Part shown: piece by piece, positions 2,946 through 18,112 of the stretch
Layout: each line of letters opens with the position of its first letter
Position numbering within the stretch: position 1 is the stretch's first letter
NCBI GenBank assembly: GCA_041650835.1
Contig: JBAZKL010000001.1
Location: forward strand, 101,094 to 165,093
DNA: 64,000 bases
Reading direction: 5' to 3'
Source of the DNA: Candidatus Omnitrophota bacterium
GTDB lineage: Bacteria; Omnitrophota; Gorgyraeia; Gygaellales; Profunditerraquicolaceae
Notes under the pieces: generated by a model
The model's database searches: none
Told to the model about the DNA's origin: nothing
What the model saw: the letters and a program-made list of their open reading frames with translations, nothing else
Program-made: the position numbers and the translations under genes

Positions 2946-3104
2946 TTAACGGCCGCTATCTTTTCTTTTTGAATAGCATTCTTTGCAATAGATCGGGCGA
3001 GCTCCATTAGGCTTGAAAGGAACTTCACACTCTTTTTTGCAATCAGAACACACTGCTTTATGCATTTCCCGCGGCTGCCTGTTAAATCCATCCTGAAACC
3101 CCAT
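2946..3104 (-). CDS. Small CxxC-x17-CxxC zinc-ribbon protein (52 aa)
   Basis: Unlisted ORF: MGFQDGFNRQPREMHKAVCSDCKKECEVPFKPNGARPIYCKECYSKRKDSGR. A GGAGGA RBS sits 7 nt upstream of the ATG. Confidence 0.55.
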   Translation of the reverse strand: MGFQDGFNRQPREMHKAVCSDCKKECEVPFKPNGARPIYCKECYSKRKDSGR

Positions 3105-3157: not shown

Positions 3158-3607
3158 TTACCTGCGGCCTTTTCTCTTAAACGGAAATGGCTTTTTTTTA
3201 TGCTCAAATCCACCTCTGGAGCCTTCGCTGCGCCTTGGAAAACTGCGCGCCTCGCCGCCGAAATCCCTTTCCCGCGGCTCCCCGAAATCCTTTTTCTTAT
3301 GCTCAAACCTTGGCGCTTCTTCACTGCCGCGTTTTTCAAAGCGGCGCCCGCCGCGGTCAAATCTTTTCTCTGCGAAGCTATCGCCGCGAGGCCGGTCAAA
3401 TGGACGACGGGGCCGGTCAAATGACCGGAATGGCTTCGAAAAATTCCTTTCACCCGAAGGCCTATGCGCTGATTGTTCGATCAAAACATCTATCTTTCTC
3501 TCCAACGCAGCCAATTGATGCTGCATCTTCTTGACCAAAGCCGCCACATCCTGCTCCCCGGGCTCTTGAGATATGGGATCATCATCTTTAAACTGCTCGC
3601 TCATTAC
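3158..3607 (-). CDS. Arg/Gly-rich low-complexity protein (RGG/FDRPR repeats), likely RNA-binding
   Basis: AAGGAG RBS before MSEQFKDD... (an internal start within the listed 177-aa ORF). Repeats FDRPRRPFDRPRG, RGGRRFEKRG and FEHKKK(D/P)F. Confidence 0.5.
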   Translation of the reverse strand, partial: VMSEQFKDDDPISQEPGEQDVAALVKKMQHQLAALERKIDVLIEQSAHRPSGERNFSKPFRSFDRPRRPFDRPRGDSFAEKRFDRGGRRFEKRGSEEAPRFEHKKKDFGEPRERDFGGEARSFPRRSEGSRGGFEHKKKPFPFKRKGRR

Positions 3608-3778
3608 TACTCCTTTTTTCTGCTCAAAAATATTTATCGCCTGCTCACTACAGCTCAACCGGGAGCAAGGCGGTATCAGATCCATGAACAACTAACAGGG
3701 CGCTCTTTTATCTTAATCTCTGAAGCTTATCATCCTGCCCTAAATGAACATGGCAATATTCCTCATGATTGTAAATAC

Positions 3779-4915
3779 TTAAGATCTGCTTACAATGGGG
3801 GAATCTGCATTTTCTAGACTTGGCTGAAGTTTTAACTTTTTTAATGATGCACGCGTCCCTTCCACAAGCTCGGTAAAAAGCTCTTTTACCGAAACAATTT
3901 TCTTAATCCGATAGGCATTACTGCCGCACATGGCAAAGCCTTTATCCATCTGGCCGGCAGCTGCGTTAAACAAGGCATTAGCGATGCAATAATTAGCCTT
4001 TTGATGGTCACAGGTAGCCAGGCATTTATACGGGCACCCGAAATCAAGGCGCTTGCCGCTGGATATTTTTTTGACAAAATCATTACTAATGACCCTTCCC
4101 GGCATTCCCACGGGGCTCTTAATGATCACGATGTCTTCTTTTTTAGCCGTTAAATACGCTTCCTTATAACTGTAAGACACATCGCATTCATGAGTACAAA
4201 CAAACCTTGTAGCCATCTGCACCGCGCTTGCCCCTAAACGGATAACCCGGGCGATATCTTCTCCGTCGAAAACACCTCCCGCGGCGATAACCGGGATCAT
4301 GCCTGCCTGGCTTTCGAAATCTTTGACGGCAGCAAGCACTTCCGTTAAAATATTATCCAGGCTCACCCGCTGGGGATCTTTAATATCCTCCAGGCTGTAA
4401 CCCAAATGCCCGCCGGCCAAGGGGCCTTCAACCACAAGAGCATCCGGGAAACGATCATATTTCTTTTTCCAGACACGGCAGATCAATTGCGCCGCCCTGG
4501 CAGAAGAAACGATCGGTACAAGTTTAGTCCTTTTATTCTTGATCAATGAAGGAAGCTTTAACGGCAAGCCCGCCCCCGAAATGATCACATCGACTGACTC
4601 ATGCTGCGCGGCGTCCACCAGATCATCATAATTCGTGAGCGCGCACATAATATTCACCCCGAACGGCTTATCAGTAATAGCGCGGGTCTTGCGGATAGCG
4701 CTTACCAGGGAACTGCGCGAGCGCGCGGCATAATCGCGTACTGAAGGATCAGCGTCTTCACCAAGCCCCACGGACGCTATAACGCCCAAACCGCCCTCGT
4801 TAGATACCGCGGAAGCCAAACCGAACGAGGAAACTCTCACCCCCATACCGCCCTGAACGATGGGGATCTCGATCCGTACATCTCCAATATCAAAATCCTT
4901 AAATAGGCTATTCAT
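3779..4915 (-). CDS. Nitronate monooxygenase / FabK-like NAD(P)H flavin oxidoreductase family
   Basis: IPIVQGGMGVRVSS, GGLGVI and AGGGV motifs of the NMO/2-nitropropane dioxygenase fold, with a Cys-rich C-terminal extension. Confidence 0.7.
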   Translation of the reverse strand: MNSLFKDFDIGDVRIEIPIVQGGMGVRVSSFGLASAVSNEGGLGVIASVGLGEDADPSVRDYAARSRSSLVSAIRKTRAITDKPFGVNIMCALTNYDDLVDAAQHESVDVIISGAGLPLKLPSLIKNKRTKLVPIVSSARAAQLICRVWKKKYDRFPDALVVEGPLAGGHLGYSLEDIKDPQRVSLDNILTEVLAAVKDFESQAGMIPVIAAGGVFDGEDIARVIRLGASAVQMATRFVCTHECDVSYSYKEAYLTAKKEDIVIIKSPVGMPGRVISNDFVKKISSGKRLDFGCPYKCLATCDHQKANYCIANALFNAAAGQMDKGFAMCGSNAYRIKKIVSVKELFTELVEGTRASLKKLKLQPSLENADSPIVSRS

Positions 4916-4922
4916 CGGTCAG

Positions 4923-5126
4923 CTACCCCGTGACTTTTATATTAATAGCCCGCGGGCCCTTGGGAGATTGCTCCACCTCAAATTCCACCTGCTGCTCTTC
5001 ATTCAACGCGTCAAATTTTACTTCGACTAAACTGGACTGATGGAAAAAGATCTCTCTGCCGTCATTATCATTAATAAAACCAAATCCACGGTCACGAGCA
5101 AGCTTCTTAATTTTACCTGTGTGCAT
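4923..5126 (-). CDS. csp: Cold-shock protein (CspA family)
   Basis: GKIKKL..RGFGFI..DG.EIFFH...L. (RNP motifs). 67 aa with GGAGGA RBS. Confidence 0.9.
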   Translation of the reverse strand: MHTGKIKKLARDRGFGFINDNDGREIFFHQSSLVEVKFDALNEEQQVEFEVEQSPKGPRAINIKVTG

Positions 5127-5157
5127 TTACTTCCTCCTCTTAATAGTTACTACAAAT

Positions 5158-5235
5158 AAAAAAAACCGTAAAGGTTAGTAGTCGTGCCCCTTTACGGCTA
5201 AAAGATTTTCTAATCTTCTTTTGTACAGCAAGAGC
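5158..5235 (-). promoter_or_regulatory. csp leader module: hairpin CCGTAAAGG/CCTTTACGG followed by U8 on the sense strand, plus an AAGATTAGAA...TCTT inverted repeat
   Basis: Intrinsic-terminator-like hairpin only ~33 nt upstream of the csp ATG on the coding strand. A near-identical block lies upstream of the second csp (17179-17245). Confidence 0.5.
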
Positions 5236-5877
5236 ATTATATCATACTCTTGGCATTTTACAATTATTACTTACATTTATTTTCCCGGCACCCCGCTTTC
5301 CAGGTCCCGAGGTCAATTACAACTATACTTTTTCCTCTCCCTTCTTTAAGATCTCGTTGCATTTCAAGCAAACGATCGATCTAACAAACCTTTCCTTTGT
5401 CTCTTTAAAAAATGTTACCAAATAATTATGTTGGAACTTGATCCCGCATCTCTTGCAGCTATTCATGATACTCTCCCTTTTTTGTTTCGTTTTAAAATTC
5501 CCCTAAAACTAACAGCTCAACAAATAATCCGCCCTGACAAACAGGCAAATCGCGACAAAAAATATTCTAAATTCTTCTTTGCTTCAGGTATTGATGTATT
5601 CCCGGAATTACTATTACTCCTTCATGCGGGCTTACCGTGAAAAGATTCTACACAAGAGCATTTTCCTGATGGGACATTTAAGGAGAGCAACAAGAGTGAG
5701 CAATAGGTATAGTATACCACTATAAAAGAATTATAACACTATTATTTTTTTAAAGAAGACCTGATTGATGCCCTCTTTCACGGGCATGACAAACGGGTTC
5801 GATTAACAATAAACGATAATTAAAATATTCCCGTCATCGGCAACTCACCCGGGGTCATTGTGGGGAGCCATAAACAT

Positions 5878-14365: not shown

Positions 14366-14530
14366 TATATAAATTTTAAAGGTTAAAAATCAAATAACAA
14401 AAGAAATTCAAAGAATAAAGATCAAATTTTAAAATTACCTGCGGTAGGCAGTAACCTTATACCTTTAACCTTCCTTTGTTATTTATACTTTAGACTTTAT
14501 CATTAACGCTATATAACCTAACTACTTAAC
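14366..14530. repeat. Palindromic MITE-like intergenic element, family A, copy 1
   Basis: About 85-90% identical to 16544-16715. Inverted arms AAATAACAAAGGAA.../...TTCCTTTGTTATTT around a CTGC-GGTA-GGCAG core. Confidence 0.75.
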
Positions 14531-16543: not shown

Positions 16544-16715
16544 CTATAAAAATTTTAAAGTTTAAAGGCTAAATAACAAAGGAAATTCAAAGAATAAAGG
16601 TTAAATCTTAAAATTTCCTACCTGCCGGTAGGCAGGAACCTTATACCTTTAACCTTCCTTTATTATTTAGACTTTAGACTTTATCATTAACGCTATATAA
16701 CCTAACTACTTTACC
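16544..16715. repeat. Palindromic MITE-like intergenic element, family A, copy 2
   Basis: Arms TAAAGGCTAAATAACAAAGGAA / TTCCTTTATTATTTAGACTTTAG. Central hairpin CCTGCCGGTAGGCAGG. Confidence 0.75.
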
Positions 16716-16806: not shown

Positions 16807-17007
16807 TTATAACTTGACTACATTAGTAGCCTGCTCGCCTTTAGGGCCTTGTTCGATATCGAACTCAACCTGAGCGCCTTCAGCTAAAGATTTATAGCCA
16901 TCGCCCTTGATAGCGGAATGATGTACGAATACATCTTTGCCGTTTTCAGGTGTGACAAATCCATAACCTTTTTGATCATTGAACCACTTTACTATTCCTT
17001 TTGCCAT
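16807..17007 (-). CDS. csp: Cold-shock protein (CspA family)
   Basis: [15 protein letters not shown]...VFVHHSAI motifs with AGGAGG RBS. Confidence 0.9.
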
Positions 17008-17178
17008 TGCTTGTACCTCCTTTTCTCTATATTTAGTAACTTGTTAGAAATCGTTATCATCTTTACCTGCTAGACTTTAGACTTCTAACGGGACAAACAA
17101 TGACAAACACCATGTTGCTGCTGACTTACACCCCGCGCTGATTGGAAATTGCGCGGGTGTGCTGCTTTCCGCAGCAAC

Positions 17179-17245
17179 AAAAAACCGTAAGGTCAGTTAT
17201 CCTTTCCTTACGGCTAAGACTTCTAATCTTTTACTGTTTTTTAGT
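17179..17245 (-). terminator. Hairpin + U6 terminator-like module (second copy of the csp-associated module)
   Basis: CCGTAAGG...CCTTACGG hairpin, then TTTTTT on the sense strand. Preceded by the AAGATTAGAAGTCTT block shared with 5158-5235. Confidence 0.55.
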
Positions 17246-17285
17246 ATACCACTAATGCGTTTTTTGTCAAGGGTTATTATATAAA

Positions 17286-17415
17286 GTCTAAAGTTTAAAG
17301 ACTAAATAACAAAGGAAGCTCAAAGACTAAAGATTAAATTTTAAAATTACGCCTTAAACCTTTGACCTTACTTTGTTATTTAAACTTTAGCCTTTAGACT
17401 TAACTCTCTATCTCT
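17286..17415. repeat. Palindromic MITE-like element, family A, copy 3 (shorter and diverged)
   Basis: TAAAGACTAAATAACAAAGGAAG...CTTACTTTGTTATTTAAACTTTAGCC arms. Lacks the central GGTA hairpin. Confidence 0.6.
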
Positions 17416-17425
17416 CATTAAAAAG

Positions 17426-18112
17426 CTACTTCGCTGACTCGTTCTTTATCCTGCCGATGAGCCGCAGGAACCCATCAAGGATCGTCAAGGGATGCGGCGG
17501 ACACCCCGGAATATAAAGATCTACAGGAACAAGTCCCTCCAATCCCCGGGACGATTCAGGCCCGTCGACAAAAACGCCTCCGGATATCGCGCAGGCGCCG
17601 ACCGCGATCACGATCTTTGGTTCAGGGATCGCCTCATATGTTTTTATCAACGCGTCCTTCATATTGCGCGGCAGAGGCCCCGTGACCACGATCCCGTCGG
17701 CATGGCGCGGTGAGGCCACAAACTGTATCCCGAACCGGCTCAAATCAAAGACCGGAGTATTCAAGACGTTAATATCCGATTCACAGGCATTGCATCCTCC
17801 GGCGGATACTTGCCGCAGTTTCAGCGACCGGCCGAAAAGCTTACGGATATCTTCCTTCAAAGCGCGCGCCAAGGCATACTCATCGCCTTTAAGGAGAAGA
17901 GCGCCGCGGTTGGATACGGCCATCCGGAAATCAGTAGAGTATTGAATACCGCCATCCGGAACAAATGTAATCGCCCCCGCGTCAATACCGGGCCCCTGCC
18001 CGGCGATGATCGGCCGGCCGCGGTAGCGCGCAGGCAAAACCGGCAGCTTACCTTTCGGGAAGCGCAATGTCCGGCGGCCTTGTCTAATACGCGTGAGAAT
18101 GATTTTCAGCAT
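17426..18112 (-). CDS. NuoB/HycG-like small subunit of a group-4 energy-converting hydrogenase-type complex
   Basis: GGCNACE, PRHADGIVVTGP and YIPGCPP motifs, plus an ~85-aa N-terminal extension. Confidence 0.8.
   Translation of the reverse strand: MLKIILTRIRQGRRTLRFPKGKLPVLPARYRGRPIIAGQGPGIDAGAITFVPDGGIQYSTDFRMAVSNRGALLLKGDEYALARALKEDIRKLFGRSLKLRQVSAGGCNACESDINVLNTPVFDLSRFGIQFVASPRHADGIVVTGPLPRNMKDALIKTYEAIPEPKIVIAVGACAISGGVFVDGPESSRGLEGLVPVDLYIPGCPPHPLTILDGFLRLIGRIKNESAK

Follow-up and report, generated by a model that had tools for sequence, protein, structure and literature searches.

Why would two cold-shock genes lying 12 kb apart in one genome each be preceded by the same short block, ending in a terminator-like hairpin? 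We examined this question in a window of 64,000 nucleotides from a Candidatus Omnitrophota bacterium (GenBank assembly GCA_041650835.1, contig JBAZKL010000001.1, positions 101,094 to 165,093 of the forward strand); all coordinates are those of this 64-kb window, and both copies of the block are read on its minus strand. The two open reading frames (ORFs), csp1 (4923-5126, minus strand) and csp2 (16807-17007, minus strand), encode products that match the Pfam CSD family with E values of 1e-20 and 2e-29, respectively. Omnitrophota is an uncultivated phylum of ultra-small bacteria, and cold-shock control is known in detail from few cultivated bacteria, where it works mainly on mRNA stability and translation through a 5′ untranslated region (5′UTR) that is unrelated from species to species. 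We conclude with high confidence that the block is the cis-regulatory leader of the Omnitrophota cold-shock regulon, and, judging from its sequence, we lean slightly toward the view that this leader is a transcription attenuator in which a terminator competes with an antiterminator.

Two copies of a structured block precede csp1 and csp2

Degenerate patterns describing the block matched exactly twice in the 64 kb, compared with an expectation of 0.00 from shuffled sequences. A covariance model (described below), run with its filters off, gave 69.1 and 61.8 bits for the two window sites and no more than 14.2 bits anywhere else, and neither the patterns nor the model revealed a further copy in the window. 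An earlier note on this stretch had proposed that one block lies ahead of both csp genes, and the two matches bear this out.

Copy 1 (5158-5223, minus strand) was delimited by the pattern matches, by folding, and by a covariance-model match at 5156-5223. It contains the conserved 5′ segment AAGAUUAG (DNA AAGATTAG, 5217-5210) followed by the stretch AAAATCTTTT (RNA AAAAUCUUUU), with AAUCUUUU at 5207-5200. The terminator-like hairpin comprises a 5′ strand (AGCCGTAAAGG, RNA AGCCGUAAAGG, 5199-5189), a 14-nt loop with CUAA at its 3′ end (5188-5175), and a 3′ strand (CCTTTACGGTT, RNA CCUUUACGGUU, 5174-5164), and it runs into a U-tract, U8 (T8 in the DNA), at 5165-5158. In the predicted fold, UUUGUA (5156-5151) pairs with UACAAA (5225-5220) and closes the element. 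The rest of the csp1 leader (5124-5157) holds the Shine-Dalgarno (SD) sequence GAGGAGG (5139-5133) and the AUG (5126-5124), such that only 31 nt, SD included, separate the U-tract from the start codon.

Copy 2 (17179-17236, minus strand; covariance-model match 17175-17236, and folding) repeats this plan, with AAGAUUAG (DNA AAGATTAG) at 17230-17223, AAGUCUU (DNA AAGTCTT) at 17222-17216, a terminator 5′ strand AGCCGTAAGG (RNA AGCCGUAAGG) at 17215-17206, a 13-nt loop with CUGA at its 3′ end at 17205-17193, a 3′ strand CCTTACGGTT (RNA CCUUACGGUU) at 17192-17183, and the U-tract U6 (T6) at 17184-17179. The spacer after the U-tract is longer, at approximately 170 nt, with the csp2 AUG at 17007. The genes placed under the two leaders are csp2 (16807-17007) and an operon (3779-5126, minus strand) consisting of csp1 and an NMO/FabK-like gene (3779-4915) that begins 8 nt past the csp1 stop codon. 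For both copies the two-hairpin fold was the minimum-free-energy structure (z = -3.6 and -3.9 versus shuffles). A scan of the window for tRNA and tmRNA gave no match.

The block forms the start of the csp transcripts

Each copy of the block begins 15-20 nt after a sigma-70-type promoter with an extended -10 element. The csp1 promoter (5236-5263, minus strand; TTGTAA-16-TGaTATAAT, 10/12 matches) consists of the -35 element TTGTAA (5263-5258), a 16-nt spacer, and the TG-extended -10 element TATAAT (5241-5236), whereas the csp2 promoter (17243-17270, minus strand; TTGACA-16-TGgTATACT, 11/12 matches) has TTGACA at 17270-17265, the same spacing of 16 nt, and the TG-extended TATACT at 17248-17243. 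Transcription starts are predicted near 5229 and 17236, approximately 8-12 nt before AAGAUUAG. Because the promoters sit directly upstream, the block is, by promoter prediction, the first ~65 nt of the csp1 and csp2 mRNAs, at their extreme 5′ end.

The position of the promoters bears on two claims made earlier for the individual copies. The csp1 hairpin had been placed inside the leader for want of space, and this placement stands, with a promoter at 5263-5236 and a gap of 31 nt between U-tract and AUG that is too short for another. The csp2 copy had been offered as a possible terminator of the hydrogenase-like operon upstream; this role is discarded because the csp2 promoter lies between the end of that operon, at 17426, and the block. 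Between U-tract and start codon, the promoter scan of the window gave no second promoter at csp1 or csp2, and matches in this interval in relatives stayed at background level.

The same layout was found in related sequences. A promoter with at least 9/12 matches precedes 68 of 70 copies (47 have 11-12/12, and 43 carry the TG), its -10 element ending mostly 12-20 nt before the core in these 70 copies, and control windows never exceeded 8/12. The spacer to the start codon is 21-55 nt in most related copies, again too short for another promoter. The order of promoter, terminator, ribosome-binding site (RBS), and ORF, all on one strand, is that of attenuators.

The leader recurs across Omnitrophota ahead of a few gene families

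We assembled 80 csp1-type loci from species-representative genomes, and a seed alignment of 26 blocks was used to build the covariance model. The model located the element in 67 of the 80 Omnitrophota csp loci, always on the csp strand, and close relatives of the window have retained both blocks and both promoters. The earlier note had called for a comparison of csp upstream regions in relatives, and the block is conserved there. To sample beyond csp, metagenomes were scanned with a DNA pattern that took no account of what lies downstream, in which GAUUAGA was fixed and the loop was left free; at least 80 loci were recovered, containing at least 85 covariance-model matches.

The downstream genes were tallied for 149 distinct copies among the matches listed, drawn from the csp loci and the metagenomes together, and all counts out of 149 refer to this set. 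The first gene encodes Csp in 109 copies, a ~50-amino acid (aa) Cys/His-rich protein (..KVKTSHKGRKCK..HILSIYNHEAYCH..) in 27, a DEAD-box helicase directly in four, an NMO/FabK-like protein such as the one that follows csp1 in the window in two, and a small CxxC protein, a homologue of the window ORF 5323-5466, in another two. Hence 144/149 copies lie directly ahead of a member of one of these few gene families, in the same orientation; three further copies precede none of these families and are weak matches, and two lie at a contig edge. Pfam searches confirmed CSD, DEAD plus Helicase_C, and NMO for the downstream genes and gave no family match for the small Cys/His and CxxC proteins. No sign of a leader peptide was seen, there being no AUG in either window copy and any ATG in only 38/149 copies.

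Such strict orientation and proximity to genes argue for a cis-acting element instead of a repeat or a free-standing small RNA (sRNA) gene. In three loci (L019, L024, and L035) the element sits between csp1 and the NMO-like gene, directly before the latter, and in L019 and L024 no promoter of its own lies ahead of it; such promoterless intra-operon copies fit a cis-acting attenuator and not an sRNA gene. Genomes carry several divergent copies of the element rather than one conserved locus. In most genomes of the phylum the two csp genes are neighbors, in the order leader, csp2-type gene, terminator, and csp1-type gene (L009-L088; e.g., L010, L013, and L015), the genes of the Omnitrophota loci ending with ordinary hairpin-plus-U terminators; in the window, csp1 and csp2 have a leader each, and csp1 is joined with the NMO/FabK-like gene. 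RNA chaperones and an RNA helicase are what a cold-shock regulon would be expected to hold. Two of the earlier suggestions do not survive this comparison: the block is not linked to csp only, as it also precedes DEAD-box helicase, small Cys/His, and NMO-like genes, and it is not a co-opted repeat, given two copies in 64 kb with strict orientation and gene association.

Two observations concern the small-protein genes behind the leader. The ~50-aa Cys/His gene has an apparent AUU, AUC, or AUA start in 18 of 27 cases according to a heuristic RBS-based call (L086, at 570-720, and many of L089-L168, e.g., L090, L122, L128, L136, and L141). In loci with enough flanking sequence, such as L086, the next gene encodes a DEAD-box helicase.

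The terminator helix is conserved and hairpin 1 is not

The terminator stem has 9-11 bp with a GCCG/CGGC base and a mean energy of -15.7 kcal/mol. Across the aligned copies pairing holds in 93.1% of cells, with changes on both sides in 80 cells, a combination reached by none of 500 shuffles, and the signal collapses once the partners are slid against each other. As an example of the covariation, 23 sequences have C-G in place of U-A at one position. In 69 of 71 copies the stem is followed by five or more consecutive U residues, and RNAalifold applied to the full element recovers the terminator alone. By its stem and U-tract the hairpin is a predicted intrinsic terminator, with a loop of unusual length that is taken up below.

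Hairpin 1 was rejected as a conserved helix. Its native duplexes (-2.23 kcal/mol) are no more stable than permuted ones (-2.49 kcal/mol, p about 0.99), its fixed-register counts equal those of shuffles (382/500), and it shows no covariation in relatives. Its 5′ strand is kept in relatives together with a complementary stretch of the terminator loop instead. It still folds in the window copies, with 8 bp and considerable strength in copy 1. The two hairpins described earlier are thus both present in the window copies, but only the second is kept as a helix in relatives.

A putative alternative helix overlaps the terminator

Two elements are conserved as sequence, GAUUAG and a CUAAC located where the terminator loop meets the 3′ strand. 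The segment AAGAUUAG is complementary to CUAACCUU, which comprises the 3′ end of the loop and the top of the terminator 3′ strand; in copy 1 this putative antiterminator 3′ strand occupies 5171-5178 (minus strand) and is complementary to 5217-5210. When duplexes between the 5′ segment and the 3′ side of the loop were compared for native and permuted partners, the native pairs were more stable (-4.73 versus -3.68 kcal/mol), and none of 5000 permutations reached the native value, in a test that ignores the kinship of the sequences. The effect also holds within the 26 variant sequences alone, control segments were flat, and hairpin 1, subjected to the same test, provided an internal negative control. 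Variant clades change both sides of the pairing (GAGUAG/CUCGCC, GAAUUG/AAUUCAC, and GGUAAA/UCUACC), and CYRR(N)CYU is present at the junction in 72 of 82 metagenome copies among the matches listed, a feature that was not demanded by the pattern used for the search.

A pairing confined to the loop could coexist with the terminator as an H-type pseudoknot. The portion of the pairing that involves the loop alone shows weak native specificity (14/3000 permutations), and in variant clades the alternative helix runs unbroken into CCUU of the terminator strand. Because of this continuation, mutual exclusion of helix and terminator is favored by the sequences over a pseudoknot.

Nascent RNAs that end 5 nt into the terminator 3′ strand were folded at 37, 20, and 10 °C. 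The alternative helix, together with an inner hairpin that uses the terminator 5′ strand, dominates these folds in 55-60 of 70 copies. For copy 2, the AAG.AUUA/CUGA.CUU helix with its inner hairpin is the minimum-free-energy structure of the nascent RNA (-9.9 kcal/mol).

A proposed second toggle in csp2-type leaders

In csp2-type leaders the segment that follows the U-tract (consensus CUGCCAUUAUUUACUA) has two alternative partners, the 5′ flank GUAGUAAAUAAG and the start region GUAGUGAAUAAUGGCA. Both pairings are native-specific: with the SD/start region the energies are -16.8 versus -15.2 kcal/mol for permuted partners (1/3000; range ~-17 to -25), and with the 5′ flank they are -10.6 versus -9.5 kcal/mol (1/3000). 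The helix between 5′ flank and post-U-tract segment gave -9.6 versus -8.6 kcal/mol (0/3000) in a separate permutation test. In the downstream part of the window csp2 leader (17005-17108, minus strand) a duplex of -23.7 kcal/mol joins GUUUGUCAUUGUUUGUCC (17108-17091), the anti-start segment, to the SD/AUG region (~17028-17000), and the whole leader is strongly structured (minimum-free-energy fold, z = -8.0). A clear competing 5′ partner for this anti-start segment was not evident in the window csp2 leader, nor was a toggle between free and locked start codon evident in the short csp1 leader. From these modeled folds, csp2-type leaders are predicted to behave as thermoswitches, with alternative structures that free or sequester the RBS and start codon: the start codon would be free when the post-U-tract segment is on the 5′ flank and locked when it is on the SD/AUG.

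Proposed mechanism and points that weigh against it

We infer that transcription terminates in the leader, that this termination is regulated, and what the regulating signals might be. In the OFF state, the long-looped hairpin GCCGUAAGG...CCUUACGG and U6-8, accompanied by hairpin 1 in some copies, would stop RNA polymerase after about 65-75 nt. In the ON state, AAGAUUAG would pair with CUAACCUU and enclose the inner hairpin that holds the terminator 5′ strand, so that the terminator could not nucleate and polymerase would continue into whatever lies behind the leader (csp, the NMO-like gene, or the helicase operon). The ON fold would be the default co-transcriptional fold, complete before the 3′ base of the terminator is made, and, being about 9 kcal/mol weaker than the OFF fold, it would render the outcome kinetic. 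Cold would trap the ON fold and thereby cause induction, whereas free Csp, as a single-strand-binding RNA chaperone, would keep the 5′ segment, (G/A)UCUU, and the U-rich stretches open and speed terminator formation, giving negative feedback; the two inputs would be mutually compatible. The attenuator proposed in the earlier note is retained here in its conservation with csp and its layout of promoter, terminator, RBS, and ORF, and is given up in its specificity for csp.

A broader form of this attenuator scheme, which we call "Csp-stat," is put forward tentatively and with less confidence than the attenuator itself. It would constitute a phylum-wide class of regulatory RNA not described before, in which one ~65-nt leader would set the whole Omnitrophota cold-shock regulon through a two-fold kinetic competition that senses temperature and free chaperone. 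The regulon would, equally tentatively, include two Csp types, the DEAD-box helicase operon, the NMO/FabK-like enzyme, and the small zinc-finger-like proteins. If true, the cold-shock autoregulation long inferred in E. coli would become testable on a minimal RNA, and the small Cys/His proteins would be pointed to as new cold-shock factors.

Several results count against this mechanism. The terminator loop, 8-25 nt long with a median of 12, is longer than the approximately 3-8 nt of typical intrinsic terminators, and a standard terminator scan with a loop limit of 8 misses hairpin 2 in the window, where the loop is 13-14 nt. RNAalifold predicts no shared helix when given the nascent prefixes. 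When the alternative helix is held in a fixed register, it is 85.7% paired compared with 84.0% after shuffling (12/500), with 9 versus 4.1 double-change cells (4/500), and its register slips between clades; its support comes mainly from the register-free energy test on related sequences. The nascent fold of copy 1 is dominated by the 8-bp hairpin 1 and not by the alternative helix, a modeled outcome compatible with three competing structures (anti-antiterminator, antiterminator, and terminator). On average, the nascent RNA folds at -9.8 kcal/mol and the full element at -18.5 kcal/mol; because the full element is more stable, the terminator would win at equilibrium, and the alternative fold could act only as a kinetic block in the brief interval while polymerase passes over the U-tract. 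As for the protein input, (G/A)UCUU is found in only 73/149 copies, and its candidacy as a Csp site is a lead that rests on its resemblance to a heptamer of Bs-CspB, a protein that prefers d(GTCTTTG/C) and has been co-crystallized with GUCUUUA (PMC7825780). Csp could plausibly promote or prevent termination, and the direction adopted here is assumed.

Alternative explanations

The strongest competitor of the attenuator gives the leader a purely post-transcriptional role, as a thermoswitch or a stabilizer of the mRNA, in which no termination occurs and the 5′ structure blocks RNases, sets the SD/AUG fold, or both, on the model of the E. coli cspA and S. aureus cspB/cspC 5′UTRs. The native-specific helix between 5′ flank and post-U-tract segment and the capacity of that segment to sequester the SD/AUG at -17 to -25 kcal/mol agree with this explanation, as do the atypically long terminator loop and the action of known csp leaders at the level of translation or stability (PMC8034633 and PMC3386247; Xia et al. 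2002, as cited in PMC1636342). A stabilizer, however, needs no U-tract, and a GC-based stem followed by U5-9 is kept in 69/71 copies; the U-tract is retained even in csp1-type, helicase-operon, and intra-operon copies that have no long anti-start segment, and the alternative helix overlaps specifically the terminator 3′ strand. We consider this explanation unlikely, yet the one most deserving of attention after the attenuator.

A dedicated RNA-binding protein, perhaps the small basic Cys/His protein, might instead sense the near-invariant GAUUAGAA and/or CUAAC, with temperature and Csp playing no part. Conservation of GAUUAG and CUAAC beyond the needs of pairing would be accounted for in this way, and the Cys/His gene is the second commonest behind the leader (27/149), an arrangement often seen for autoregulated regulators. 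Against such a sensor, the clades with a variant 5′ segment alter the loop in step, which points to RNA-RNA pairing and not to a fixed protein site, and the gene set is the classical cold-shock set; RNA binding by the small Cys/His protein is, from its sequence, purely conjectural. We regard this sensor as improbable.

Still less probable, to a degree that we give it little weight, is an independent trans-acting sRNA gene composed of promoter, ~65-nt RNA, and terminator, with csp expressed by read-through or from its own promoters. The strong promoter and terminator-like end at each copy have the look of such a gene, and its short RNAs might collectively titrate Csp, but the co-orientation of 144/149 copies immediately upstream of few gene families, the spacers that are mostly too short for a second promoter, the several divergent copies per genome in place of one conserved locus, and the intra-operon copies without promoters all speak against it. 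That the block simply ends transcription of the upstream operon, or is a dispersed repeat that happens to lie near csp, is scarcely credible, for although it follows the hydrogenase-like operon at csp2, where repeats abound, a promoter separates it from the upstream gene at both sites and in 68/70 relatives, and only two copies, with strict orientation and gene association, occur in the 64 kb. A metabolite riboswitch was considered and rejected, the genes encoding RNA chaperones, helicase, and small proteins and not one metabolic or transport pathway, and the conserved unpaired bases being largely explained by the alternative helix.

Relation to known leaders

Searches against Rfam 15 returned no match at gathering thresholds for the whole window and none at E <= 10 for 4900-5400, and the covariance model of the cspA thermosensor (RF01766) likewise gave no match in these scans. 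A description of the motif was not found in the literature, in a search with incomplete coverage. The leader is most likely an undescribed RNA switch for a cold-shock regulon.

Cis-acting csp leaders with mutually exclusive folds are already represented by S. aureus cspB/cspC and E. coli cspA (RF01766). In the S. aureus cspB/cspC 5′UTR thermoswitches, either a 5′ hairpin sequesters the anti-RBS (open form) or the RBS is locked, and S. aureus CspA has been proposed to favor the locked form (Catalan-Moreno et al. 2021, PMC8034633); the csp2-type leaders share this toggle among 5′ flank, anti-start segment, and start region. The S. aureus cspA 5′UTR is processed by RNase III (PMC3386247), and the 5′ cold box of cspA has been tied to autoregulation or stability (Xia et al. 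2002, as cited in PMC1636342). The S. aureus and E. coli leaders act on translation or stability, whereas the core of the Omnitrophota leader is a promoter-proximal hairpin with U-tract and competing helix, which would imply control of elongation. The Omnitrophota leader is, in addition, common to non-csp genes (the DEAD-box helicase operon and the NMO-like gene), unlike those csp leaders, and has no sequence or model similarity to them.

The E. coli Csp proteins are transcription antiterminators (Bae et al. 2000 and Phadtare et al. 2002, as cited in PMC1636342), a system that likewise links Csp, intrinsic terminators, and induction of cold-shock genes. The E. coli terminators lie upstream of nusA-infB-rbfA-pnp and not in csp leaders, and they are not known to share a conserved RNA motif; in Omnitrophota, by contrast, the conserved csp leader itself carries the terminator.

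The trp-TRAP, pyr-PyrR, and bgl/sac systems are terminator/antiterminator leaders under the control of RNA-binding proteins. They resemble the Omnitrophota leader in their layout (promoter, short leader, terminator with an alternative partner, RBS, and gene) and in its reuse across a regulon. The motif and gene set differ, and a dedicated binding protein is a candidate only. With just 7-8 bp, interrupted by a mismatch or bulge, the alternative helix is weaker than the terminator, so that control in Omnitrophota would be kinetic or thermal. The leader therefore groups functionally with csp 5′UTR switches and with classical terminator/antiterminator leaders and is a member of no described family. 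What distinguishes it from known csp leaders is the promoter-proximal terminator as conserved core and its sharing by a regulon.

The leader allows the regulon, including two small-protein families without known function, to be read from sequence alone, and it suggests premature termination as a route of control for cold-shock genes. At ~65 nt, the RNA is a minimal subject for studying feedback among RNA structure, temperature, and Csp chaperones. It is a candidate Rfam family with about 150 diverse members among the matches listed.

Neighboring features of the two loci

A GC-rich palindrome (17114-17178, minus strand) stands in the csp2 leader right after the U-tract. Its sequence and length vary among near-identical relatives; in L005-L007 the leader flanks are almost identical and the palindrome is swapped for a longer, different GC-rich one. 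It looks like a hypervariable or inserted hairpin.

The csp2 gene is bracketed by two ~130-nt AT-rich palindromic elements (17278-17412 and 16545-16685), a partial copy of which lies at 14474-14499. They are made of 7-nt TAAAGNC units, share 71 nt at 87% identity, and have 62-nt arms that are 79% complementary. Read on the csp strand, the arms contain AGUCUUUG and AGUCUUUA, the heptamers preferred by Bs-CspB, and a related stretch, AGAAGUCUAAAGUCUAG, is found within the csp2 leader at 17061-17088.

Just upstream of the csp1 promoter lies a 47-aa ORF with a CxxC...CxxC pattern (5323-5466, minus strand), homologues of which stand directly behind a leader copy in L154 and L168. No leader copy was found ahead of the window ORF, the sequence at 5640-5600 being only faintly similar (GUAGAAUCUUUUCACGGUAAGCCC). 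Downstream of the csp1-NMO operon are a 52-aa zinc-ribbon ORF with CxxC...CxxC (2946-3104, minus strand; assigned to Pfam zf_Tbcl_2 in the annotation of the locus) and a 177-aa ORF that is highly basic and rich in repeats (3158-3691, minus strand). The products of these two ORFs may be further RNA-binding proteins of the neighborhood.

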